NCBI GenBank assembly: GCA_043228905.1
Contig: JBHGNT010000004.1
Location: 23,064,001 to 23,128,000 of the forward strand
From: Azolla caroliniana
Taxonomy: Eukaryota; Plantae; Polypodiophyta
Length of the DNA: 64,000 nucleotides
Reading direction: 5' to 3'
The translations under genes were made by a program, and so were the position numbers. Shown here piece after piece: positions 4,171 through 60,650 of the stretch. The notes under the pieces were generated by a model. The model saw only the letters and a program-made list of their open reading frames with translations, had not been told where the DNA came from and did not search any database. The number at the start of each line of letters is the position of its first letter. Position 1 is the first letter of the stretch.

Positions 4171-4865
4171 TGTTGTGAAGAAAACCGTCCCTAGGCGGAA
4201 ACCGAATTTAGCGTGTGTAAACCGGCCCTTACACGTGAGCACACTTTCGTTGTATAGTAAGTAGGTAGGTACAAGTCGGCTGAGATGAAATCCTAGGAAG
4301 CACGCATTCAATAGGGAGAGAATCGAGGTGTATCTCTGTCTGAAAGGACAGAGAATTAATATGATGTAACGAATGATAACGGCCTCCCTCCTTGGGCTAT
4401 AAAAGAGAGGGAGAGGAATAAAAAGGGATCGGTTTTTTTTTGTGGAGGACGAAGTGCTGTCGGATTGGGACCAAGCTCTTCTCCTCCTTCTTTCTCTATA
4501 TTCGCTGGGCGCAGGTTTTTGGGGAGGCGAACTCTGCTTTGTGGAACGCCCGTGTGCTTCCGGCAGAGTCTCCATCTCGCTCTTCTACGTGTGAGTAAAC
4601 AAGCGTCGGCGTTCGCCTTGCCAGCCTGTTAGTTGTAACCGTCTTGATATACACATGCAAATTAATATACATACGTGTTCATATACTCAGACTTCTAGTC
4701 GTCTCGTTTTGTTGTGTTGATGCATTGTGATTCCTGTGTGCCCCGCGTCCGTGTGCGTACAAGTGCGTCTGTTGCCTTCCCATTCCCCTCCTTCTCAGCT
4801 ATTTCTCGATCCAAGACCCCGGTGGTCCCGCCTCGTTTTACACGCACGCGCGTGACAACGCGACA
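4171..4865 (+). repeat. 5' LTR of Gypsy C
   Basis: Direct repeat of 14879-15573 with ~27 substitutions counted by eye (~96% identity), almost all transitions; TATAAAA at ~4398. Confidence 0.95.
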
Positions 4866-4869
4866 TATT

Positions 4870-4887
4870 TGGTGAACCCGACGTGAA
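4870..4887 (+). promoter_or_regulatory. Primer-binding site complementary to tRNA-Trp
   Basis: TGGTGAACCCGACGTGAA is the reverse complement of the 3' 18 nt of plant cytosolic tRNA-Trp (...TTCACGTCGGGTTCACCA, from recall), 4 nt after the LTR end. Confidence 0.8.
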
Positions 4888-6789
4888 CAGGCGGCAGAGG
4901 AATAGAAAGATGAAGGGGTCGGATCTCGCGGAAACCATGGCTTCATCTGTGGATCGGATAGTGAGTGCGCACGAAGGCACAGGCGCCCTCGATAGGGCCA
5001 TTGAAGCGGTCGTCGGCACGATAGGCCGGTTCGGTGGGAAGGACGCCACGAGCTATTTGGAGGCCTACCGGGCCAAGATGGTAATGAGAGACATTCCGGA
5101 AAAGAGGCGACTGACCGGTTTCCCTCGAGTGGCAATGCCGAGCATCCATGCGGAGGTGCTCGAGGTACAGGCTGAGAGCCGGACCTGGGAAGAATTTGAA
5201 GGTCGGCTCCTCGAAAAATACGGTCTTGATGACGCGCTTTGGCTCTCGAAATGGGATTTCATGGAATGGGTAGAGACCCCCGAAAAGGGGAGAAACGCGT
5301 CAGTGCTCCTCCGGGAGTTTGAAGAACGCTTCGCGCGTCTTTCGGCGCTCAACCGGACTGTACTAGACACGAACCGCGTCCTGCTGTTCATTAAGTCAGT
5401 GGATGCGAGGGACCAGGAGCAGGTGGGTCTCCTGCTGGAGACTAATGACGAGCTGACGGCCAACTGGGCCGTGGTGAAGAGAGTTTGTGGCCGTTTTGAC
5501 AAACGATGAGAGTGGGTCGATAAAGGATCAACAAGGGAGGGCTCTGTAGTAGCAAGGAGTCTTGAGCCAACCCCACCAGCGCGAAGGGAAGAGACCCGAG
5601 ACTGGCTCAAGACCAGATCGACTTCGACCGGCATGGTTAGAGGCTCGAGCAGAGGATCAGCTCTAGAGGAGTTGACTAGGATGGTAAAGGACCTCCAAAT
5701 TGCACAGGCACGGAGGGACGGCGGCGTACAGGCCCGTGACCGAAGGCCTCTGGCTGGAAACCGGTGTTTGTGGTGCGACATGGTCGGCCATGTCCGGAGG
5801 GACTGCGGGGACTTCATCGAGGCAATGAGAGCCAACGTGGTGTACCTATGGAACGGTCGGGTGCACGCTAGCGAGACCCGAAGGACCCTGGACATGAATG
5901 TCGAACGAGGGGGTATGAAACGGTTGATGGAAGAAGCGGCGGCTGGCCACGCGGAGACCGTCCACTACTCGGCGTCAGCAGGGATCCGGGTCGGAGGTGG
6001 TGAGGCCCGGAAGACGGACGAAGCCGGATTCTGGCCGTTGATGTAGGAAGGCCTTGCCGGCGCACGGTTAAGGAAAGAAGAAGCGGACCGCGCGGAAAAA
6101 CGGGTTTGGGAGGTAACCGGGTGGAGTGACCCGGTCGAAGAGAAGACGGGCTTCGTTGAAGCCGCATGCCAGAACTACGAGGCTCTGGTGGAAGACAAGC
6201 GAGTAGGTAAAACCGGAGGGGCCGGGCCCTCGCAACGATACGAAACCCGATTCGGTCAACGGCAGAATGAGGCCGGCACGACCGGATAAAGCCAAGAAGG
6301 CCAGGTGCCGGTTGAGCACGGAAATCGAAAGGACCACGGACCTGCGAAAGGTCCTGGAGGAACGTATCCTCGACAACAAAGTGGAGTTATCGCTGAGGGA
6401 GGTGCTCAGGATCGCCAATAAGGAGTTCCATGACTCCATCGTAGACTTGGTGAAGAGAAAGAGACTGTCGATAGAGCCAGAGCCGGAGAAGCCGGTGGAA
6501 GTGCGAACGACGCACATAGAGGACATGGCGCTAGAAGATGAGTTGGCGGAGAGCCACTATTCGAGGCCGCACTGGGCCAGAGCGACCACGGAGACCCCTG
6601 TTAAGATTGGGGATGTCCAGGAGTCAGTGGTGGCGTTGGTGGACCACGGTTCAGAAATCAACTTGATGTCCATGGACTTCTAAAAAAGGGGAAAATGGCC
6701 GATCAACACCAAACACGGCTGGAAAATACGGGCAGCGACGCGCGCCACGGAAGAACTACATGGAACCTGCCCGAACGTACGGGTGAAAA

Positions 6790-7452
6790 TGTTGGGATTT
6801 CGGTCCCTCCGGATGGGATGTCCGGAGATGAATGACGGCAAGCCCGGTTGCGGTTACGGAACCGGATGATGAAGAGTACCCGGCATGAAGCCGGATGAAG
6901 AGACCCCGACTACGGAGCCGGATGCTGAAGACCCCGGTTACGGAGCCGGATGACGAGTGTACCCGGAGAGAGATCCGGATGCGGGGACATATTTGTGAAT
7001 ATGTTTTGCCAAGAGCCCTTGAGGCTATATTTGTAAATAGCCCGAAAGTCATATGTGTATAAATATGACTTAGGGCAAATAGTTTAAATGTTGTTGCTCA
7101 TTTTTCTGTGTAAGGTCACCCCTATGTGTGCAAGAGAGTGAAGAGAGCAGCCGAGAGAAAGAGAGAGAGAGAGAAAGAGACGAGGAGGTCGTTGCCTCTG
7201 TGTATCACCGCCGCCTGTGGCGAAGACAGTGAACTCAAGGTTGTTGCCTTGTAGCTTCACCATTGTACATCTCTGTTCATAGTGATAGTTGGAGTCTGAG
7301 GACTCCCGTGGTTTTTCCCATTTAGGGTTTTCCACGTAAACATCCTGTGTACTCTCCTCTCTATTGTCTTCGTGCATTTTGTATTTCCTCATTTTTCTGT
7401 GAGTTAATCCTATTCCTCGGTTGTGGCCGAGAGCACTGTTTTTTTTTCAACA
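6790..7452 (+). repeat. 5' LTR of Copia D
   Basis: TGTTGG...TCAACA termini; U3 with CCGGATG-containing direct repeats; TATAAATA at ~7058; GA-rich R region. Confidence 0.97.
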
Positions 7453-7455
7453 AAC

Positions 7456-7467
7456 TGGTATCAGAGC
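7456..7467 (+). promoter_or_regulatory. Primer-binding site (tRNA-iMet) of Copia D
   Basis: TGGTATCAGAGC 3 nt after the LTR end. Confidence 0.95.
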
Positions 7468-7483
7468 GACGGTAACACAGAAA

Positions 7484-10400
7484 ATGGAAGGCGGCGGTAG
7501 TGGGCCTCCGGGCATGATGGTGTTGAACTCACAGAACTACGCCGACTGGAAGATAAAGATGGAAGACCTTCTCATCGTCCAAGACCTGTACGAACCGATC
7601 GACAATGCCGAGATACCCAAGGGAGTAATAGAGTCGGAGTGGAAGCTCCTGAACCGGAAAGCCGTAGCGACAATCCGGCAATATGTCGATGTAAGTGTCC
7701 TGCAACATGTGGCGAACGATACGAACGCCTATGAGATGTGGAAAAAGCTGTCGGGCCTCTACGAGAGGAAGAATGCGTTGAACCGGACCTCCCTGATGAG
7801 GAAGATAGTGAACCTCAAGTACCGGGACGGCGAGAATATGGTGGAACACGTGAGCACGTTCATGGGATTCGTGAACCAGCTTGCGGCGATCAAGTTCCCG
7901 TTGGAGGATGCAATGCAAGCCATCATTCTGATGTGTACATTGCCGGAAAGCTGGGAGAACTTGGTGGTGACTCTCAGCACCTCCTGCACCGAAGATAACT
8001 TGTCTCTACAAACGGTAAAGACAAGCATTCTAAATGAAGAAGCGCGTCGGAGAGATAAAGAACCGGTCTCCGACTCGAAGGCGCTGCTTACCGAATCGGA
8101 ACGGGGAAGACAATGGAACCGGAGTCCGCAAAGACGGGAGAAGTCGGGGACCCGGTCGCAGTCAAGAGGAAGGCCCACATGCTTCCACTGTGGGAAGCCG
8201 GGGCACTTCCGGAAGAATTGTCGGCATTACCGAAAGGACAACGGAGCCGACGACACCGATTCGAAGAAGTCACCGGAGAGAAACGGGGCATACCGGGGAG
8301 CCACTGACCGGAGAGGTCCGGATCGGCGAGGGCAGGACCGGAAAGGAACGACGGCACTCGCGGCAAGTGAAGAAGAGATAATGCTCATTACCGAAGAGAG
8401 GGAGCTGAACCTTGCCGGTGTAGAGATGACCTGGGTGGTCGATTCCGGAGCGTCGTTCCACCTGACCCCGGAAAGAAGATACTTCTCATCCTACACAGCC
8501 GGTGAGCATGGTTGTGTTCGGATGGGAAATGAAGGTACGTGCCGGATTGCCGGCATAGGAGACGTGTGGTTGACAACCTCGACCAGATGCAAAATGTTGC
8601 TGAAGGATGTCCGACACGTTCCGGAAGTTCGATTGAACCTGATCTCGGCCGGGAGGCTAGATGATGAAGGCTACACGGGTAGCATCCGGAACGGTGTCAT
8701 GAAGTTCAGCAAAGGGAGCCTGATAGTGGCTCGGGCCCGGAAGGTCAATACACTGTACCTGATGAATTCCCGGCTATGTCCGGAGGAGCTGAACGTGGCA
8801 GCCGACACTGCCGGTGAGCTGTGGCACAAGAGACTGTGCCACATGAGTGAGAAGGGGATGAAGAGGCTTGCCGATGACAACCTGATTCCAGTGAAGCATG
8901 TGCACCTGGAGAAGTGCACCGACTGTCTGGCCGGTAAGCAAAATCGGACCTCCTTCCACTCAAGGCCACCAACGAGACGTAGCGCACCATTGGAGTTGGT
9001 GCACACTGACGTGTGTCAAGTAGAAACGAAGTCACATGGCGGAGCCCAGTACTTCGTGACATTCATTGATGACCACAGCCGGAAGCTGTGGACGGCACCG
9101 TTGAAGACAAAGGACCAAGTGTTGTGCGTCTTCAAAGAACTCCACGCGAGAGTGGAAAGGGAATCCGGCAAGAAGCTGAAAGCGATACGAGCGGATAACG
9201 GAGGGGAATACCGGGGGCAGTTCCAGGAGTACTGTCGCTCGAAGGGAATCCGGCTCGAGTTTACTGTGCCGAAGACGCCGGAACTGAACGGGCTGGCCGA
9301 GAGGATGAACCGGACCATAATGGAGAGGGTCCGGAGTATGCTGGTGCATGCGAAATTACCCAAGGGGTTTTGGGCTGAGGCAATGTCGACGGCGACATAC
9401 GTGATAAACAGATCACCCTCAGTACCTTTGGACGGAGACACGCCGCAGAGAGTGTGGGCCGGTAAGGAAGTGTCCTACCGGCATCTGAAGGTGTTCGGGT
9501 GTCTCGCATACGTGCATGTGGCAAAGGACCGGAGAGGAAAGTTAGATCCAAAGACCCGGCCATGCATATTCCTCGGTTACGGCGACGACGAGTTCGGCTA
9601 CCGAGTATGGGACCCGGTCGACAAGAAGATATTCAGGAGTCGAGATATCATCTTCATGGAGGACAAGACACTCGCCGACTGGGAGTCGGAGAAGAAGATG
9701 AAGAGCTCCAAGTCGACCGGTGAAGATCAACTCTACGAAGAGCAGTCCCGACCGGCAAGGGACCGGTTAGCACTCGAGGATCCGGCCGAAGACGGTGAAG
9801 AAACAGAACCGGCCGAGGAAGATGAAACTGATACCGGAACCGGCCCCGATCCCGAAATGGATTCGGATGAAGAGGAAACGGAGGAGCCGGTTACCGAAGC
9901 TCCGGAACGGAGATATCCTCTAAGAGAGAGAAGGCCCCCCCAGAGATTTCCGGAACCAGAGCACGTGCTGCTAACCGACGAGGGGGAGCCGGAGAGCTTT
10001 GAAGAAGCAAAACTTGACACCCATAGCCGCAGGTGGTTAAGTGCCATGCAGGAGGAGATGGATTCCCTGCATGAGAACCACACATATGAACTTGTGGAGT
10101 TGCCGAAAGGAAAGCGGGCACTTCGAAACAAGTGGGTGTTCAAGCTGAAACCGGGAGATGCCGGAAACCCCCCGAGATATAAAGCCAGGATCGTGGTGAA
10201 GGGGTTCCAGCAGAAGAAGGGCGTCGACTTCGACGAGATATTTGCCCCGGTAGTGAAGATGACCTCCATCCGGACGGTGCTGAGCATAGCGGCAAGCATG
10301 GACCTCGAGGTAGAACAGATGGACGTGAAGACGGCATTCCTTCACGGTGACCTCGAAGAAGAGATCTACATGCAGCAACCGGAAGGATTCGAGAAGGGAA

Positions 10401-11553
10401 GGAGCACCTGGTATGCCGGTTGAAGAAGAGCCTTTACGGACTGAAGCAGGCTCCCCGGCAATGGTACCGGAAGTTTGACTCTTTCATGACCGACGAAGGG
10501 TACCACAAAACGCAGTCCGATCACTGCGTGTTTGTGAAGAAATTCGAAGGAGGAGACTTTCTAATACTCCTCCTGTACGTGGACGACATGTTGATCGTCG
10601 GACGGGACCAGGTCAAGATACGGATGCTGAAGAAAGCACTCCACCGAACCTTCTCAATGAAGGACCTGGGTCCGGCGAGGCAAATACTAGGGATGCACAT
10701 CATCCGGAACCGGAAGAAGAAGCAGTTGTGGCTGTCACAGGAGAAGTACGTGACAAAGGTGCTTCACCGGTTCAACATGTCGGAAGCAAGACCGGTCGGG
10801 TCAACCCTCCCGGCAAACTGCAAGTTGTCCAGCGAGCAAAGCCCCAAGACAAAGGCTGAGAAGGAGGACATGATGAAAATACCATATGCCCCTGCCGTCG
10901 GAAGCTTGATGTACGCAATGGTGTGTACAAGACCGGACATAGGATACGCAGTCGGAGTGGTGAGCCGGTACATGAGCAATCCCGGCAAAGAGCACTGGAA
11001 CGCGGTCAAGTGGATACTCCGATACCTGAAGGGCACGGCAAACGTGTGCCTCCGATTCGGCTCCGGTAAGCCCGAACTCGACGGCTTTACCGATTCGGAT
11101 ATGTCGGCTGATGCAGATACCAGCCGGTCCACATCAGGGTATGTGATGACGTATGCAGGGGGAGCTGTTTCGTGGCAGTCGAGGCTGCAGAAGACGGTTG
11201 CGTTGTCAACCACGGAGGCGGAGTACATGGCGGCTGTTGAAGCCGGCAAGGAAATAATATGGATGAAGGACTTCATTAGAGAGCTCGGTATCCGGCAGGA
11301 GGAGTACCGACTCTACAGCGACAGTCAGAGTGCCATCCACCTTGCGAAGAATGCGGCCTATCACTCCCGGACGAAGCACATCCAGCGTAGATACCACTGG
11401 ATCCGGGAAAGGATAGAAGACAAGGAGTTCGTGCTGACGAAGATCCACACGGACGAGAACGGGTCGGATATGCTGACCAAGGTGCTCACACCCGACAAGC
11501 TGGAAGCATGCCGGAAGAGGATCGGATTGGAGAGACATCCCATGCCGAAGTGA
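7484..11553 (+). CDS. Copia D gag-pol polyprotein (gag, CCHC knuckle, PR, INT, RT, RH) split by one frameshift at ~10395
   Basis: ATG at 7484; CFHCGKPGHFRKNC, WVVDSGAS, LVHTDV..ADNGGEY..AER, RT to EGFEKG. Continues in another frame as KEHLVCRLKKSLYGLKQ, LLYVDD, GFTDSD to the stop at 11553. Confidence 0.92.
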
Positions 11554-11563
11554 AGGGGGAGTT

Positions 11564-12226
11564 TGTTGGGATTTCGGTCCCTCCGGATGGGATGTCCGGA
11601 GATGAATGACGGCAAGCCCGGTTGCGGTTACGGAACCGGATGATGAAGAGTACCCGGCATGAAGCCGGATGAAGAGACCCCGACTACGGAGCCGGATGCT
11701 GAAGACCCCGGTTACGGAGCCGGATGACGAGTGTACCCGGAGAGAGATCCGGATGCGGGGACATATTTGTGAATATGTTTTGCCAAGAGCCCTTGAGGCT
11801 ATATTTGTAAATAGCCCGAAAGTCATATGTGTATAAATATGACTTAGGGCAAACAGTTTAAATGTTGTTGCTCATTTTTCTGTGTAAGGTCACCCCTATG
11901 TGTGCAAGAGAGTGAAGAGAGCAGCCGAGAGAAAGAGAGAGAGAGAGAAAGAGACGAGGAGGTCGTTGCCTCTGTGTATCACCGCCGCCTGTGGCGAAGA
12001 CAGTGAACTCAAGGTTGTTGCCTTGTAGCTTCACCATTGTACATCTCTGTTCATAGTGATAGTTGGAGTCTGAGGACTCCCGTGGTTTTTCCCATTTAGG
12101 GTTTTCCACGTAAACATCCTGTGTACTCTCCTCTCTATTGTCTTCGTGCATTTTGTATTTCCTCATTTTTCTGTGAGTTAATCCTATTCCTCGGTTGTGG
12201 CCGAGAGCACTGTTTTTTTTTCAACA
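11564..12226 (+). repeat. 3' LTR of Copia D
   Basis: Near-identical copy of 6790-7452, followed by TSD gaaaa. Confidence 0.97.
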
Positions 12227-12460
12227 GAAAATTGGTGATGTCGAAATCGACCGGCACTTCTTCGTGCCGAAGACGTCCTCACATCCGGTTATACTAGGAG
12301 AACCATACATCACAGCGGCACGGATGGAGACCAAGGTGTTGGACAACGGTTCGGCCTATGCAAGAGTCAAGAGCCAGGACGGGCGTCACTCGGTCCAGTT
12401 CCTGACGGTACGACCGAACCATGAGCGTAACCGTGAGACCCTCGGAGGCGAAACCCGAGG

Positions 12461-12526
12461 GGATTTTTAGAGAGGGCTATCAAGGCGTGGGGCTGTGATA
12501 GTCCGGACACCCCGGAAAAACCCCAC
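12461..12526 (+). promoter_or_regulatory. Putative -1 programmed ribosomal frameshift signal (slippery heptamer plus H-type pseudoknot)
   Basis: G GAT TTT (12461-12467) immediately before the gag-pro TAG; 6-nt spacer. Stem 1 GGGCTATCA (12474-12482) / TGATAGTCC (12496-12504). Loop GTGGGG (12487-12492) pairs with CCCCAC (12521-12526). The -1 frame is open downstream. Confidence 0.75.
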
Positions 12527-14803
12527 AAGTGTACAGTAGGGAAGAAGACCTATACCATAGGTAGGAAATTTTGGTTCTTCGACAGTGGGGGTGCTGCAGA
12601 GACTAGAAGGCGTGAGGCTCACCTTCTCCGGGGAAAAATCGGCCTTCGGGAAATCAGAGATCATGGTCGTCGGACACCTATGCGGGTCGGGCCGTATGGT
12701 AGGAAACCATCTCTGGCCAAGGTGGAAGCCATCTCCGCGATGAAGCATGACTGCAATTCGGTTACGGAGGTTCAGAGATTCTTGGGAGCATGCACGTTCT
12801 ACCATATCTGGATCCCGCATTACGCCCACGTCGCGGAGCCGCTGTATGGGTTGCTGAAGAAAGGGCGTAAATTTGAATGGGGAGACGAGCATACGGAGTC
12901 AATCCGAAAGATGAAGGAAGCACTTGCCACAGCACCGGCGCTCCGAAAGGCTGTCTACGGCAGAGACACTCCGATTTACGTAACCGTAGACACGAGCCCG
13001 ACCGGGATCGGATGGGTGATCAACCAAGAGGATGACGTTGGCACGAGGTTCCCCATCCAGTTCGGTGCGAAGGTCCTCAGTGAGCGACAGCGAGGATACG
13101 CCCAGGTTAAACGCGAACTCTGGGGTATCGTTTCGGCGGTGAAGGCCAATAAAGACTACCTGATCGGGACAGAGGTAATAATCAAGACAAACTGCCTGCC
13201 GATTCTTGGCATGGTTTCCGGATGCGCGACGTCGGACCTGGCGATGCTCAGGTGGATAGCGTACATCAAGTCCCTGAATTCGGAGATATGACACATTTCC
13301 GGAAAAGTCAATGCCATGGCCGACATGCTCTCAAGAGCAAGGTTCGAAAACGAGGACGGCATGGTTTCGGAGGACGAGGAAGTCGGCGTAGACTTCTTGA
13401 GGCGGCTTATGTAACAACCAGAAAGGGAAGCACTCCGGCGCTTAACGACTTCGACGAGAGCAAGTATGACGGGGAGTGGCTCCAAATCGGCGAGTTCCTA
13501 AGAACAATGACACCAGACGTGGTGTGGACGAAGGAAGAGACCAACAGGATCCGAAAGAAAGCGTACCGATTCTTCCTACGAGACGGGTACATATGGAAGC
13601 ACCCGAAGAAAAGGGACGGCATCCCGCTTCGAGTGGTGGCAAAGAAAGAGCAGCAGGAAGAGTTGTTGTCAGCATACCACGAGAGTTCCTGGGCCAGACA
13701 CCGCGGGACATGGGCCACGTTTGAGAAGCTAAAGGGAAAGTACTGGTGGTCGGGACGTGCATCCGTTCGTGACAACTTGCGAAAGCTGTCAGATGCACTC
13801 CATAGTCCGACACCGGGACGAGCTCCACCCAACTTACCCGCCGATCGTCCACTTCAAATGGATGGTGGATTTGGTGACAATGCCGATGGGGGTAGGACAG
13901 ATGCGGTATCTGGTGCTGGCTCGGGAGGATCTAACGAACCAGGTTGAAGGCTGAGCACTGCAGAACAAAACGACCGTGGCTGTGTGCCGGTTCCTAATCG
14001 AGGATGTGATATGTCGGTACGGGAGCGTAGGGAAGATCGTGGCTGACCGCGGAGAGTTGGATGCGCAAGAGGTTGAAGAGTTGTTTGACCGGCTAGGGGT
14101 CAAACTCTTGCTCACCACAGCGTACAATCCGGAGGCTAACAGGAAGGTGGAGCGCAGACACGGGCCGGTAGTCAAAGCGCTAGTACGGGCGTGCGGGGGC
14201 CAAGTTGGGAACTGACCACGACTGCTACCTTATGCCTTATGGGCGGACCGAACTACGCACAATTCAGTAACCGGGTTCATGCCAGCAAAGCTTATGTACG
14301 GACAGAAGCCGATCATGTCGACGGAACGGACGATCTCCTCATGGGCCACGGTGGACTGAAGAGATGAGATGAGCCGAGAGGAGCTGCTGGCGGCATGGAT
14401 TCGACAGCTCAAGCGGAGGCCGGAAGACGTGGAAAGAGCCACGGAGAAGCTTCGGTTGGCAAGGTTGAAGAACAAAGGGCGATTTGACCGGACTCACCGA
14501 TTGCGACCGAAGAAAATCGAGGAAGGTGACTGGGTCCTAGTGTATGACAACAACCTCGACAACCAGCACAGGGCGACGTGAAAGTTTGCAAGGAGGTGGT
14601 TCGGGCCTTACGCGGTGACAAGCGCCAACGACAACGGGACCTACCATCTTGCGGAGCTCGACGGTACGAGGATGGCAATACCGGTAGCAGGGAAGAGGGT
14701 CAAAGCATTTAAGAAACGACACAAGTGCAAGCCGGATCTGGAAAGCGTGGACAGCGACGACGGACAGTCCGAGGTGAATGACGACCCGAAAGGCGAGGAG
14801 TAA
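12467..14803 (+). pseudogene. Gypsy C pol remnant: RT C-terminus only, RNase H, integrase
   Basis: The -1 frame is open 12467-13291 (includes ORF 12680-13291, RNase H). RT tail VLQRLEGVRLTFSGEKSAFGKSEIMVVGHL at ~12590-12680, no YxDD. Integrase fragments 13400-14800 with CGA>TGA stops. Confidence 0.85.
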
Positions 14804-14878
14804 AGCATGGACCGGTTTTCTCCGGCAAGAGCCCAATTTTGGCGCATACCGGTGGATGCGCGGTTAGGTGGGGGCGGA

Positions 14879-15573
14879 TGTCGTGAAGAAAACCGTCCCT
14901 AGGCGGAAACCGAATTTAGCGTGTGTAAACCGGCCCTTACACGTGAGCACACTTTCGTTGTATAGTAAGTAGGTAGGTACAAGTCGGTTGAGATGAAATC
15001 CTAGGTAGCACGCATTCAATAGGGAGAGAATCGAGGTGTATCTCTGTCCGAAAGGACAGAGAATTAATATGATGTAACGAATGATAACGGCCTCCCTCCT
15101 TGGGCTATAAAAGAGAGGGAGAGGAATAAAAAGGGATCGGTTTTTTTTTGTGGAGGACGAAGAGCTGTCGGACTGGGACCGAGCTCTTCTCCTCCTTCTT
15201 TCTCTATATTCGCTGGGCGCAGGTTTTCGGGGAGGCGAACTCTGCTTCGTGGAACGCCCGTGTGCTTCCAGCAGAGTCTCCATCTCGCTCTTCTACATGT
15301 GAGTAAACAGGCGTCGGCGTTCGCTTTGTCGGCCTGTTAGTTGTAACCGTCTTGATATACACATACAAATTAATATACATACGTGTTCATATACTCAAAC
15401 TTCTAGTCGTCTCGTTTTGTTGTGTTGATGCATTGTGATTCCTGTGTGCCCTGCGTCTGTGTGCGTGCAAGTGTGTCTGTTGCCTTCCCGTTCCCCTCCT
15501 TCCCAGCTATTTCTCGGTCCAAGACCCCGGTGGTCCCGCCTCATTCTACACGCACGCGCGTGACAACGCAACA
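14879..15573 (+). repeat. 3' LTR of Gypsy C
   Basis: Preceded by PPT AGGTGGGGGCGGA; ends GCAACA followed by TSD tccgt. Confidence 0.95.
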
Positions 15574-16034: not shown

Positions 16035-16929
16035 TAGCGATGGGCCCGGTTCAATTTTGGTTCGATTCGGTTTCTTGGCCTTAAAACCAAACCAAACCAT
16101 TTATTAATAATAAAAATCAAACCAAATTGTTTTAAATTTTATGAAACCATTTAAACCAAACTGTTTACGAAAAATTTAAAACCAAAACAAACCGGTTTGT
16201 CATAAATCAAAACCAGACCATTTTTTATTGATATTGATCATCATACTTATTATAAATTTATGTGAGAAAATCATCATAAATTTTGTCATCATACTCATCA
16301 TAAATTTTGTCATCATACTTATCATAAATTTTGTCATCATACTTATTATAAATTTGGTCATCATACTTATCATAAATTTGATCATTATACTTATCATAAA
16401 TTTGGTCATCATACTTATCATAAATTTGGTCATCATACTTATCATAAATTTGATCATTATACTTATTATAAATTTGATCATTATACTTATCATAAATTTG
16501 ATCATTATACTTATCATAAATTTGATCATCATAAATGAAAAGGACACTCTACATATAATACATATAATCATAAATTTGATCATCATACTTATCATAATTG
16601 ATCATCATAAATGAAAAGGAGACTCTACATATAATACATATAAATTTTAATAAGTTAAAACAAGAGTTTAAAATTAAAAATTGAAAAGTTAGAGCCTATA
16701 GAGAATATTTTTGAGTATTTTTTAACCTATAAGCCTTTAAACCGAACCACATAAACAGAAACCGATAAGCCCCAATAAACCAATAAACCGGTAAATTCAA
16801 AACCCAACCGAAACCGATTAGTAACATTTGAAACCAAACCAAACTGTTTATTTATCTTTGAACCTATAAATCATTAAGCCACGGTTTTTTGGTTCGGTTC
16901 GGTTTGAACCGAAACCAGGCCCATTGCTA
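16035..16929. mobile_element. Non-autonomous hAT-type DNA transposon (copy 1) inserted in Copia B RT/RH
   Basis: TIRs TAGCGATGGGCCCGGTT / AACCAGGCCCATTGCTA; 8-bp TSD gcgagtgc (16027-16034) / gcaagtgc (16930-16937); many subterminal AAACC/GGTTT motifs. Confidence 0.9.
16235..16640. repeat. 24-bp minisatellite (ATCATYATACTTATCATAAATTTG) inside hAT copy 1
   Basis: About a dozen head-to-tail units plus a duplicated AAATGAAAAGGA-ACTCTACATATAATACATA block; explains the Ile-rich spurious ORFs. Confidence 0.9.
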
Positions 16930-27048: not shown

Positions 27049-30000
27049 CTACAAGCTGTAGTGCTTCACTGCATGTTCGAGTGTTTGTTCACTTGGACCT
27101 AATATCTCCTTCACTTTTTGCCCATTCTTGTATAGTTTGAATGTTGGAATAAAGGTCACACTTTCGATCCTCGTCAAGTATGGATGCTCTTCCACATCTA
27201 CCTGTTAAATGATTTCAAAATACAGCAAGATGGCACATCATTCACAAGTAATGTACAACACTTGCTAGAATGTGTGTATATGTGTGTGTGTGCGCGCACG
27301 CACGCGCATTGTATCGATGCATGCATGAATGAATATATTCATACATGCATAAATATGTATGTACATGTGTGTGTATGAATGCATGTGTACGTACTACGTA
27401 AATAATATCCTCACCCTCAAGAAATTTGTACAAGGATGACGCTTGCAAAGGTCGTCAATGAATGGTGAGAGCTGCTGGCAACGGTCGCTCCATCGGGTTA
27501 TAAATTGAACCACTGACAAGCCTTCAAAAATTATCGAAACAAGTTAGATTCCATGTTCCAGAATATATTATCATTTCGTTACGTGTTGGATTAAATTAGG
27601 CCAGATATAGGGCCATTAGCCATGGATAGCTATGGTCTGTACATAGACCTATGTACAGCCCATGTTCCAAAATATATTATCATTTCGTTACGTGTTGGAT
27701 TAAATTAGGCCAGATATAAGGCCATTAGCCATGCATAGCTATGGTCTGTGCATAGACCTATCAGTATGGGTAACTGGTGAAATTATTCCAAACTACATTG
27801 AAGTATAATTCCAATGAAACCTTCTTCCATTTACAGAATAAATTTCTTTCACACCTGGAGAGCTAACAGCCTCTCGGAACTGCTCATCACTACAGATCTC
27901 TTCCACATCACCTCCGAATTTCATCTTGTAGATTTCTTCGCCCCGTGATTTTTTAATCGCCACCTGAACCTCAAAGAATCCTCGAGCTACATCAATATCC
28001 CCCGGGATTTCCCTCCGAAGAATTTCATAATCCTGACGAGCATCTTCCCAACGCTCGAGCTAAAGACAAGAAAAAGAAACACAAGAATGTCAAGAATACA
28101 CATATATATTAAGAAAAAACACCAAATATATCCCCAGTATTGTTAATTTCTGAAAACTAAGCAAGTTACTAGGGATAGTTTGGATGCTTTCTCCTATATA
28201 TTAAATACAAAGGCCACCATTAAGGGAACAAATGGTTATTTAAGAAAAAAAATTACCTTTGCCGAACAACTCGCCCTCCGCATTCGAGCCTTCTTGTAAT
28301 TCGGTTGCAATCGTAGGGCAGCATCACAATCTTCAACCGCTTTTTCCCATTGGCCCAGTTTCATTCTACATGCAGCTCGATTGCATAACAAGACTGCATT
28401 ATTGGGGTCACACTCGAGGCCTTCAGCATACAATGCCAGAGCCTCAAAGAACCTCCCAAACTTGAACAATTCGTTTCCATTGATCCTCGCTTGACTCACA
28501 AACCTTGATTTCCTCAATAATGCCCCGGCTTCAGCATGGTTAGGATCGATTTTCACCGCCATTTCAGCTGCATTAACAGCCTCCTCGAACCTACTCCATT
28601 GTAGAACCCTAATTAAACATGGCACACATACAAAAATATATACACACGCATATACATATACACATACACACGTCATAGATGTACATGCATGCAGACATAT
28701 ATACACACATTATATATACATATATAAATGCTAATTCAAAATGTTTCCTACCATACCTTCCCAGGGCCATGTCAATTTGGGCTCGAATTATATGCAGAAA
28801 TGGATCAGCCAATTTGATGCCCGTGTTAACCAATGATGCATCTATCCTCTGGGCTACGGAACACACATTGTCAGCTTCTTCTGGTTTGTGCAACCTCAAC
28901 AAAGCCTCACATTTGTACCCAAAAAACTGCCAACAAAAAACAAGGGGCAATTAATATCATCTGTCCCAAGTGAAAGGACAAATTAGTATGTAGTACCTGT
29001 GAAGCCAAATCAGCACCCGCAACCACAGCTGCATCGCTTTCTCGGATTACATTAACCCACTCCCGTAGCTTCCTAGCATTGATACATCGAGAAAAATGCT
29101 TCTCTATGTTTTGCAAGTGTTGCAGTTCAACTAAGTCCACATTTTGTCCAGCAACATGAAGATGCCTATTTGCACTCTCCAATAGACCCAATCTATGTAC
29201 AAGATCATAATAACCACCATCATAACTTAATTCCATTTCAAAAGACAGCTTAAGTCCATCTCTAGGTGTAACTTCATTCCAATTTTAATCAAGCAAACAA
29301 TAGCAAATTTTGAGTCAAATATATACGCTAACCTTATATAAAGTGATGCAACCCGTTGATGAGCGCGACCATAACACAAAGGATCGAGCCTAATGGATTC
29401 TTCGTATTCACAAATGGCTTCAGCCCATCGTCCGAGGCCACTAAGAGCCGCCCCTCGATTACTCCTATAAGATGCATTGGTCGGACATAGCACAACAGCC
29501 CTCTCATAAAAGACCAAAGCATCCAAAAATAACCCTCTTTTATAATACTCGATGCCCGAATTATTCAAGTCCTCTGGATCTGAGCTTCCTTGAACCCTTC
29601 GCAAAAGAGAGAAATCGGTGGCATGACAGTTATTTGTAGATTCGCCTTGTTTTCCATTACTTGTTTTTGCACCTGACCCGTATGTTAAAACACTACCATT
29701 TGCACTTCCAACTAGCAAGTTCCCGTTGTTCATACCTCCAAAGCCACCACTATTGGACAGGTTTCCCTTGCTCAAATTCACATTTGTTTCCATCCGATGC
29801 GTAGCAGAGCCTCTCAGATGATCATTAAAGAGCATCTCTGCACTGGATTTGTTCATGTTCGTTGTTGTTGTTGTAGAGGGAAGGGAGTTCATCATTACAC
29901 TCTCTGTCCCCATTCGATGTGACGCCGAACCTCTCAAATGGTCATGAAATAGGATCTCGCCCGATTTCCGTCCAGGAACAGTCTCAGCCATAGATTTCGG

Positions 30001-31351
30001 GCCAGGAATGACTTCACCTGATGATTTCCGACCTAACCCACTTCCAGATCGGAATTGGTTTCCAGACCCAAGAATATTGCCCATTGGTCTAGAGCCAGGG
30101 CTACTTTTGGTCACCAAGATGTTGCCAAATGAGGAACCTCGGCCATCTTTAGTGGTGGATTCAGAAGCAGTTGGGCTCCCTCCATTAGAGCTACCTCCAT
30201 GAGATGATGAAGAATCCAGGGAGCCTGACCCAACTCTAATGCTAGTAAGCACAGGGTTTCCTCTATTTGGACTATCTTTCAAAGAAAGCCCATGGAAGGA
30301 ACCTTTGATATCGGTATGATCATGTTCACCTGATTTTTGACGTCTAATCTTCCCATTGCCCATGAGTTCACCAGATGTTTGTGTCGTGTTCACATAAGAA
30401 TTACCATTCACTTCTCCAGACTTATGCCCATTATTACCAAAACCACCATTGGTTTCACCTAATGCTTGAGCTTTTTTCACATTCAATGCCAAAGAATTAC
30501 CATTGATTTCTCCAGATTTATGAGCACTATTACCAAAAGCACCATTGATTTCACTTGAAATGTCACTCTTTCTTACGACGATGGGATCTGATCGGCCACT
30601 TTCATTGAGCTCGATTGTATTATCGCAGAAAGGCTTCGGAATGTCGCCTTTCTCTTTTACTACAGATTCCTCTCTGGAATCTAATGAATGCTCCACAATA
30701 AGATCATGTGTGGTATTTACACTTTGATATCGTGTAGGGTTCTGATTGATTCCAATATAACCTTGTGGTGAGACGTTATTGTAAGCTACAAGATTGCTGA
30801 GAAAGCTATCCTTTTCAGTAACCACATCAGGTTTCTTCACATCAACAGCCATCTCTGACATTAAATCAGATTGTGGGTTATTCTTGTGTTTCGAATGGGA
30901 AGTGGCCTTTCCATCACCAATGTTGTCAAAACTCACATTATTGAGGTGAGAATCCTTCACAGCATTACCATCAAAACCAGAGAGCACACAAGGCGTCACA
31001 TCATCTTCCACGTTGAACCTCCTGTTGTTGTATTAAAGGCAAACAATCTTAATCAGAAATAAGCACCGCATGTTTATCCAATAACAAAATCTCATCTTAT
31101 GCAGAGACTTAACCCATTTTTCAAATGAGGGAAAGTCACATAGCGAGGATTTTTCTTTCAAGAGAAGAAGTTAGCAGGCATACACACGCATACATACATA
31201 ATATATATGTATACCTTGAGCGATTGTGTACATTTTGGTGGCTGTGGCGATGAAGATCTCCTCTGTTTGAACTATACAGTTTGCTGTTAAAAATGCCTGC
31301 ATATAAATCAATGGAAGGATGCTTCCTTTCCTCTGCTTCACACTCCACCAT
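27049..31351 (-). CDS. TTL: TPR-repeat thioredoxin-like (TTL family) protein, 8 coding exons
   Basis: GT-AG exons 31351-31215, 31021-29333, 29192-28997, 28926-28757, 28590-28257, 28059-27855, 27521-27415, 27201-27049 splice in frame. Long Ser/Gly-rich N-terminus, TPRs (YRSNRGAALSGLGR, LLCNRAACRMKLGQWEKAVEDC), MKFGGDVEE linker, and C-terminal TRX-like domain with degenerate WSDRC and PTFKLYKNG. The start codon is the least certain part. Confidence 0.92.
27551..27761. repeat. Tandem duplication (period 109 bp) in TTL intron 6
   Basis: ccatgttcca..tagacctat occurs at 27551 and 27660 with few mismatches. Confidence 0.85.
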
Positions 31352-44865: not shown

Positions 44866-59274
<14,409 letters not shown>

Positions 59275-60650
59275 AATCCTTTGGTATACTCACTTCAGGC
59301 AATCTAAGCATAAGGAAATAATCCTTTCACAGAGCTCCAATGAGATTCTCTAATTATGTTTATTCCAAGGCGATAAGGTCCACCGTAATTGTTTGCAAAC
59401 ACTCATATTAGGCACTTGAAGCATACATGAAAAACTTCTCTCACTAAGCATGAATAACATACTGCAATATTGAAGAGATTTGATCATGCTTCTTGGTTCA
59501 CCAGGCGTGCCTAGCAGAACGTAACTCAGAAAAGACATTGAATAGATATCCAATCAATGTGAGAAATTTTCATTATGCTCCTGTGATCCAGGGGGGCTGT
59601 CCATTGGAATTCATCAAAAATTCATCAAAAAACTGCTTGTATTTCCAAAAACAAAAGCTTGCTATTATTCGACCTCTTGTAAATTCAACAATGACCAAAA
59701 GGCTCTTCCTGATCAGCCTCTCTCTTTTACGATGTAAGTCTTCCTATTAGCCCTCTCTTTGAAGTTTTGTCAAATATAACAAAGCTTGCTATACGGCCAA
59801 TTATGAAATCTTGCCGATGCTTGAAAATATGAATCCTTCCATATTGTAGTGCTATTAGAGAATACTTATCTGGGAACAATCCGAGTTGAACTGAGACAGA
59901 GATCTTCACGGAAGGAGCAGAGATTCACACTTTGAGACAAAATGGAACAAAACAAACCAGAAGCCTCTCCTCAACCACGAGAGATTCTGGTTCTAAACAA
60001 CTCCTCAAACAAAAGGATTCTGCTTCCAGAAACCAGAAGATATCTCCAAAACCAATTATGTTGCTTCCGAAATCCAGAAGCAAAAAAATCTGGTTCCGAA
60101 GACCTGAAGAATCTCCTCACAGAAAAAACACTCACTTTTCTCTGCTCCCCTTTGAAAAGCAGTGTTTAATCCAAACCAGTTCCAAAACGAGAGGAGATAG
60201 ATAGATAGGTAGATAGATAGATAGATATGGACAAAGAGGTTGCGCGAGAGAGAAAAAAGGGATGTTCTGCTTACTTGTGGAGCCGAGAATGATTTAGATC
60301 TTCAAGGGGAAGGGATCCAAGAATGGCGGGAAAAAGCAAAAGAAAAAGCACAGTCCAAATCCCTGCTCCTATCCTCGATGGTGATGGCGATGGCGATGGC
60401 GATAGTAAAAAGGGGGGGAGGGAGAGAGAGAGAGAGAGAGGGATTGGAAAATCCTAAAAAGAGAAGGGAGAGAGGGCAGAGTAAGTATGAGGAGGCCCTG
60501 CAGTGGTGGCTATGGCGATCGATCCGCAGGAAAGGAGGAAGAAAAAGGGAAGGGTGGGCGATCGATGGATCGATGGATCGATCGATCGGAGGGAGAAGGA
60601 GAAGGAGAGGTCCCCTTTTTCTGTGTGTCTGCGTCTGTGCCTGGCTCTCT
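59275..60650 (-). promoter_or_regulatory. PI4KB 5' UTR with probable leader intron (~60274-59304) and CT-rich leader exon
   Basis: Minus-strand donor AA|GTAAGC at ~60274, acceptor TTAG| at 59304; GA/CT microsatellites upstream. Confidence 0.55.

Follow-up and report, generated by a model that had tools for sequence, protein, structure and literature searches.

A predicted frameshift signal between protease and reverse transcriptase in a Phygy-type Gypsy lineage, with a candidate -2 variant

In the window analysed here, a stretch of 64,000 nucleotides from Azolla caroliniana, the gag-protease (gag-PR) frame of a Gypsy element ends in G GAT TTT TAG, followed by bases that could fold into a pseudoknot. 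This raises the question whether the element makes its pol products by programmed -1 ribosomal frameshifting after the protease, as an earlier note on this DNA proposed. The site is as the note described it: the slippery heptamer GGATTTT occupies positions 12461-12467 of the + strand, to which all element coordinates refer, and the TAG stop positions 12468-12470. The predicted stem 1 pairs GGGCTATCA (12474-12482) with TGATAGTCC (12496-12504). Within its loop, GTGGGG (12487-12492) is complementary to CCCCAC (12521-12526), as reported, and these two strands would form stem 2. The distance of 6 nt given for the stem is correct if counted from the heptamer, but not from the stop, since the spacer (12468-12473) includes the TAG.

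Self-comparison and Pfam annotation of the window place the outer Gypsy element at 4171-15573, with LTRs that are 96.1% identical. CCGT, an NCGN-type target site, directly precedes the 5' LTR (4171-4865). The primer-binding site (PBS; 4870-4887), a putative match to tRNA-Trp, is the same in the divergent family E described below. Gag and the first part of the protease (4856-6789; DUF4100, with the DHGSE catalytic motif at 6641) lie in a frame that is no longer intact, with stop codons and, near 6220-6290, a shift of register. The protease is interrupted by a nested Ty1/copia element (6790-12226), very young by the 99.85% identity of its 663-bp LTRs and flanked by a 5-bp target duplication; the reverse transcriptase (RT) of this nested element is divided over two frames near 10350-10423. 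The remaining protease and Gag-PR tail (12227-12470) terminate in G-D-F-stop. The rest of pol (RT thumb, RNase H and integrase; 12593-14800) carries more frameshifts and stops, and a purine-rich tract precedes the 3' LTR (14879-15573), which is followed by one extra base and then CCGT. The LTR pair, PBS, polypurine tract and domain order GAG-PR-RT-RH-INT are those of a Ty3/gypsy element. Just 3' of it, at 16201-16584, lie about 12 or more 24-nt tandem units, and long exons of host genes are found on the - strand at 29227-31032 (a TPR-repeat protein) and 57787-59289 (a PI4K-beta/PIK-domain protein).

The -1 frame after the site is open in the window copy, from 12437 to 13291, but only 12461-12592 is genuine pol, a stretch of 44 codons that matches residues 3-47 of intact pol. 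At 12590-12592 a deletion of 1,142 nt, seen as the same gap against the full-length related copies L034, L037 and L041, has taken out the RT core, and from there to about 12689 the register is displaced. By comparison with intact pol, the 276-codon open frame is thus genuine for its first 44 codons only, and its length is partly accidental. With its RT deletion, stops, frameshifts and Copia insertion in the protease, the window copy is a dead member of its lineage. In the pol N-terminus, both here (12461-12592) and in relatives, 130-150 residues precede the TKYK motif in all families; this region is conserved in length, divergent in sequence and without a Pfam match. The lack of a Pfam protease in pol homologs was discounted as evidence because Pfam barely detects the protease of this lineage (E = 0.049).

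Within 64 kb, the arrangement at the site is not in itself rare. A loose search for heptamer, 8-bp stem and 6-bp second stem picks out just this site among the 419 heptamers on the + strand of the window; the - strand has two such sites, and 20 shuffled + strands have six in total. The 63 nt of the window copy fold with a z-score of only -1.24, and its stem 2, taken by itself, falls short of significance (p = 0.18). The weight falls on the location of the pattern at the gag-PR stop and on its conservation.

Conservation was assessed among close copies from a search of the 523-Mb genome with 301 nt, in which 3,543 first-look candidates were found, 40 scored and 30 retrieved, the window included. 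The heptamer is kept in 28 of the 30 copies and heptamer plus TAG in 25. Both strands of stem 2 are intact in 28. The 9-bp stem of the earlier note holds for eight core pairs, all present in 21 of 30 copies and found family-wide, while the ninth pair is nearly private to the window (2/30). Over 28 gap-free copies the variation per column falls from 0.044 upstream to 0.010 within the heptamer, and it is 0 for either strand of stem 2, with CpG content as a partial confounder of this comparison. In other copies, for example L006, L010, L018 and L023, the RT core follows in the -1 frame directly from the heptamer. One further copy of this family, L040 (G000:C10:3365300-3374300), carries in gag an LTR-like insert of ~0.7 kb bounded by TG...CA.

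Protein searches of the genome revealed divergent families whose pol homologs are roughly 57-76% identical to that of family A, the family of the window copy; many of their pol ORFs are stop-free over 1,157-1,241 codons. G GAT TTT followed by a stop codon closes gag-PR in families A (with subfamilies A2-A4), B, C, D, F and H, and RT-RH-INT lies in the -1 frame. Heptamer and stop are found in 60 of 68 distinct junction contexts outside family E (44 TAG, 9 TAA and 7 TGA), and the remaining eight show point changes or indels; three further contexts could not be anchored. Among 11 junction-spanning metagenome contigs, from 35 retrieved, eight carry heptamer and stop, one has lost the stop, and two were unanchored. 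The codon ahead of GAT varies (Glu, Gly, Met or Ser), while its final base is always G. The heptamer lies in the 0 frame inside the ORF overlap, as in canonical -1 sites, and the downstream ORF is in -1 in A-D, F and H, and in +1/-2 in E. The pol frame is open for at least 200 codons from the site in all eight family representatives. In A2, B and H a stop closes the -1 frame 10-13 nt before the gag stop, so a shift must fall within the last three to four codons, that is, at the heptamer. The stop is family-wide and uses all three stop codons, which rules out its creation by a copy-specific mutation; readthrough is ruled out by pol being out of frame with gag-PR.

The variable stop also bears on splicing. 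In the Ogre lineage an intron lies at the same junction (PMC6317226), and a short intron could likewise join pol to Gag-PR here, the U-run then serving as a 3' splice-site tract. Acceptor-like sequences are present, TTTTTAG|AG in family A and a U-rich tract with CAG|G in family E, and 26 Riccia gene models span both ORFs, some joining them at recurrent points. However, TGA or TAA replaces TAG in B, C, F and H, leaving no AG at a fixed place and phase, and the ORFs overlap with no stop-rich spacer between them. The Riccia joins are highly variable and omit parts of the protease or pol, which resembles the bridging of frames by gene predictors. We consider splicing very unlikely.

Slippage of the polymerase on the five-T run, joining the frames at the RNA level, would account for a run that is invariant in 11 of 11 representatives. 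Five T are short for polymerase slippage, which would have to add 1 nt in most families, whereas in E it would have to remove 1 nt or add 2. In addition, the structure 5-6 nt downstream fits ribosome geometry (5-9 nt), and no indel over the stretch is listed in contigs of three sequencing runs, which are probably DNA. This explanation appears extremely improbable.

Pol could also be translated on its own from an AUG close to the gag stop, through reinitiation or internal initiation. This is most plausible for family E, whose intact copies carry an AUG in the pol frame about 26 nt ahead of the gag stop; in P0015, a database relative of E, the called ORF begins with an AUG two codons ahead of the site. 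The position of this AUG differs between E and its sister, and it derives from GAT GAT codons. In the -1 families the first Met of the pol frame varies from codon 25 to codon 111 (eight family representatives). Initiation would also leave the invariant heptamer and the fixed spacing unexplained, and we regard it as highly improbable.

The alignment of the families is gap-free from the heptamer to the end of stem 1. Across 11 representatives, 96.6% of the stem-1 cells are paired and four of the eight pairs show two-sided changes. The covariation score of 0.436 was reached by none of 500 shuffles, and slid controls gave at most 0.23; the shuffle test ignores relatedness, which inflates such tests, and stem 1 also encodes pol residues. 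At 6 nt from the heptamer, stem 1 falls within the 5-9 nt range of canonical -1 stimulators. Outer pairs could be added to it in several families, one in C, D and F, which would give an effective spacer of 5 nt, and three in B. As a predicted element, stem 1 is well supported.

Stem 2 occurs in compensatory forms: GTGGGG/CCCCAC in A and C, TGAGGG/CCCTCA in E, and GCAGGG/CCTTGC, with one G-U pair, in H. Taken alone it reaches p = 0.0016 in E and a borderline 0.04 in C. Its 3' strand lies 13, 14 or 16 nt past stem 1, which puts it in two codon phases; the encoded protein therefore does not account for the pairing. In B and H it has just three consecutive Watson-Crick pairs, assisted by G-U, and in a second H copy 3 bp. 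Stem 2 was scored by a script with a hand-set anchor, which biases toward structure, as MAFFT failed on the 3' strands with their differing loop-3 lengths. The two stems of family A are joined by a linker of 3-4 nt, rather long by the standard of H-type knots, and in the minimum free energy fold a competing loop-3 hairpin captures two stem-1 pairs. This hairpin (window 12503-12515, arms CCGGA/CCCGG) overlaps the base of stem 1 and could tune frameshift efficiency. An H-type pseudoknot of stems 1 and 2 is the probable structure.

These comparisons bear on what the earlier note had set out as evidence against its proposal. The first such finding, gag-pro and RT sharing one frame with no TAG, does not hold in this genome, whose intact relatives retain the stop and carry pol in another frame, and the suggested survey of genomic copies showed stems that are conserved with covariation. 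Since neither of the computational findings that would speak against it was made within this genome, the -1 frameshift reading is supported. The conserved stop, the displaced pol frame and the covarying stem thus support, at the sequence level, the note's proposed -1 shift, which would produce Gag-PR-RT-RH-INT. Beyond the note, the analysis revealed that the window copy is dead, that the signal extends across the lineage, and that one branch carries pol in the +1/-2 frame.

This branch is family E (L086-L097 and L158-L163; for example G000:C8:1480900-1489900). The family is young: in 10 of 12 full-length copies the two LTRs share 99.4-100% identity. Both gag-PR and pol ORFs are stop-free in six copies. 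Its junction reads CAG GTT TTT GAC TAG, with pol in the +1 (= -2) frame and stems homologous to those of the other families. AGGTTTTT with a 5-nt spacer is found in 17 of 18 copies, the remaining copy carrying a deletion; in the same 17, RG_GUU_UUU is followed by a downstream ORF in -2. This spacer is what separates G_GUU_UUU from stem 1. Two other sequencing runs supplied contigs that cross the junction gap-free at about 4% substitutions; one of them has 17 differences, none in the slip site or core stems and three at loop or stem-edge positions. The pN/pS of pol is 0.07 for shared and 0.12 for single changes (nine copies), and that of gag-PR is 0.24 (six copies). The values for pol indicate that it is translated and under purifying selection.

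A database pair extends the E arrangement to a second family. P0152, with a protease 86% identical to that of E, and P0015, with 82% identity in pol, fit together only in +1, via CAG GTT TTT, and P0152 is the sole out-of-frame fit to the N-terminus of P0015 among 82 Gag-PR C-termini; the two presumably come from one element. A dead or trans-complemented mutant is ruled out for E by the pN/pS of pol together with this sister in the same frame. Two successive -1 slips are ruled out by stops in the -1 frame three codons before the site and right at it. The upstream D-F codons are likewise ruled out as the slip site, as TTT is changed to TTC in a related contig and the codons are missing in the sister.

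In the Gag-PR tree (66 rows; 17 truncated, run-on or redundant sequences were left out), E and P0152 lie inside a clade with 100/98 support, in which 30 of 34 rows have DF ends, and adjoin families ending in QDF (94/88). The pol tree gives no resolved position for E. Compared with the QDF-stop type, the E junction has one base fewer, inside the slippery site, and such a single-base loss would therefore alter site, spacer and frame together. The order of events in this change is one that we infer.

How the pol frame of E is reached depends on the direction of the slip, as +1 and -2 lead to the same frame. A +1 slip from UUU to UUG would do so, although to our knowledge no known +1 motif is present in family E. 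At the candidate +1 codons, moreover, the stem would already be inside the ribosome, and the E octamer is identical to a tested -2 site. For other plant two-ORF elements pol has been reported in +1 (PMC5009743), and we consider this route unlikely in E. The -2 reading draws on AG_GUU_UUU being the -2/-1 site of the arterivirus PRRSV (PMC7618472) and on -2 being favoured by spacers 1-2 nt shorter than those of -1 (PMC3458567). It is weakened by C, D, F and B, which can lengthen stem 1 outward and yet use -1, so that the contrast between their 6-nt spacer and the 5 nt of E is not clean. On balance our data moderately favour derived -2 frameshifting in family E.

The arterivirus nsp2TF signal shares with E the AG_GUU_UUU octamer and an immediate stop in the -1 frame (PMC7618472, PMC4937337). 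In PRRSV the shift depends on a protein complex that uses a C-rich motif lying 10-11 nt downstream, with no RNA structure, whereas E has a predicted pseudoknot at 5 nt. At the position of the C-rich motif, family E has a stem-1 arm and not CCCANCUCC. Judged by these features, family E resembles the arterivirus -2 system in its site but does not belong to it. Atkins 2016 (PMC5009743) names phage Mu, arteriviruses and Trichomonas virus 1 (TVV1) as natural -2 cases; no retrotransposon is among them, and in arteriviruses it is a protein that drives the shift.

The element has named relatives in Physcomitrium, Riccia and Adiantum. A search with the protease region returned 82 proteins, of which 53 ORF-called Gag-PR ends were counted after dropping 23 eukaryote gene models and six proteins lacking the anchor motif. 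These end in DF (35), PL (10) and, once each, PF, NF, GF, LL, FD, FY, LS and YG. Among gene models, DF ends four of eight from Riccia, and VPL six of 11 from Physcomitrium. Such protein ends would fit slippery heptamers, and from them we infer the heptamer beyond this genome and its close metagenome relatives. Two Gag-PR clades (P0154-P0173 and P0156, with related Physcomitrium models) end in V/M-P-L or P-F and not in D-F, which suggests, as far as protein ends tell, that another slippery heptamer occupies this position.

Among the 40 matches to a search for longer proteins are the 26 Riccia gene models, which join both ORFs at varying points, probably via predicted introns. In one ORF-called relative, P0253, a single sequence with 50% pol identity, Gag, PR and Pol share one frame, and an A-D-F motif still follows the protease. 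The matches also include 14 distant fungal-type proteins (35-39%). Fungal-type DUF4100 Gypsy elements, matched at 33-40% pol identity and including Acaulospora and Smittium records, have homologous gag, protease and pol, and in all five that were examined the parts are fused into one protein, which suggests that the split arose in the plant branch. The split layout thus appears general in the plant branch, though it may have exceptions there, and the outgroup proteins that were examined lack it. A scan of viral contigs with a distant pol gave no match.

Several features point to a Phygy-type element, a non-chromovirus group of bryophytes. Like Phygy (Neumann et al. 2019, PMC6317226), the families have a 4-bp NCGN target duplication and a compact interior, and one PBS is common to families A and E; together with the Physcomitrium homologs, the duplication and the shared PBS are what point to this assignment. 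Several full-length copies have matching target sites on both sides (ACGT, GCGC, CCGG, GCGG, CCGC and ACGC), the ORFs fill the interior with no extra Pfam domain in pol homologs, and a Physcomitrium homolog is 52% identical over 264 residues of gag-PR. The listed size of Phygy is 7.7-10.0 kb (PMC6317226); family E, at about 7.9 kb, falls within this range and family A, at about 7.1 kb, below it. The Physcomitrium Gag-PR ends in VPL, unlike the DF seen here.

In Additional file 5 of the same survey (PMC6317226), the ORF organisation of Phygy is entered as ND, and the table contains no lineage with GAG-PROT overlapping RT-RH-INT. Ogre and Retand are also split after the protease, with GAG-PROT separated from RT-RH-INT by a spacer or stop, but Ogre has an intron and Retand mostly a single in-frame stop. 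Tcn1 and Selgy also have overlapping frames, but there GAG overlaps PROT-RT-RH-INT, ahead of the protease. The plant cases in a 2003 survey (Gao et al.), as cited in Atkins 2016 (PMC5009743), are all +1. A 2025 review (PMC12786077) touches in a general way on frameshifting and on short transcripts for Gag, the available portions of PMC3350952 and PMC12885004 contain nothing on the Gag-PR/pol junction, and the words frameshift, ORF and gag are absent from a paper on Physcomitrium transposable elements (PMC7466625). The open-access full texts searched hold no description of the junction signal; subscription papers, Repbase or GyDB may note a two-ORF layout.

Comparable arrangements are known from viruses. 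The slippery sequence of Rous sarcoma virus differs from G_GAU_UUU. Alpharetroviruses, of which Rous sarcoma virus is an example, likewise make the protease at the level of Gag and reach RT and integrase by -1 frameshifting with a downstream structure (PMC8002223); this likeness would be convergent, as the comparison is with a retrovirus and not a plant retrotransposon. Together with the plant Ogre and Retand elements (PMC6317226) they set a precedent for abundant Gag-PR. The earlier note's description of GGAUUUU as a viral slippery site agrees with reports for V-LBC (PMC8780742), dianthovirus (PMC3561658) and pea enation mosaic virus (PMC5009743), in which the identical heptamer lies near a stop. 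The stimulator in red clover necrotic mosaic virus is a stem-loop, whereas a compact pseudoknot is predicted here, with the stop directly after the heptamer.

According to the mechanism that we propose, most ribosomes would terminate at the gag stop and release Gag-PR. A minority would pause at the pseudoknot of stems 1 and 2 while GAU occupies the P site and UUU the A site, move back by one base and go on to make Gag-PR-RT-RH-INT, which would be packaged via its Gag part. In the derived branch formed by E and its database sister, the slip would be of two bases, at AG_GUU_UUU with a 5-nt spacer before the same pseudoknot. On the sequence comparisons made here, we regard lineage-wide -1 frameshifting between protease and RT, at G_GAU_UUU with a stop and a 3' structure, as highly probable. 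The fuller account, in which a whole bryophyte Gypsy lineage uses -1 after the protease and an active branch has switched to -2 driven by an RNA pseudoknot, by a single-base loss that made the spacer shorter and converted G_GAU_UUU to AG_GUU_UUU, is one toward which we lean slightly.

If the fuller account is true, the lineage would provide a natural evolutionary test of the model that links spacer length and mRNA tension to the size of the slip, the sister families forming a natural pair of -1 and -2 sites on one shared pseudoknot. The use of -2 frameshifting by a retrotransposon would be one for which the searched literature held no description. Overlapping frames after the protease are recorded for no plant lineage in the survey tables consulted, where the Phygy layout is ND. 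The proposed signal would account for the fragmentation or false splicing of these elements by gene predictors, and it offers a precise, testable mechanism for the control of Gag:Pol in an abundant lineage of non-seed plants.
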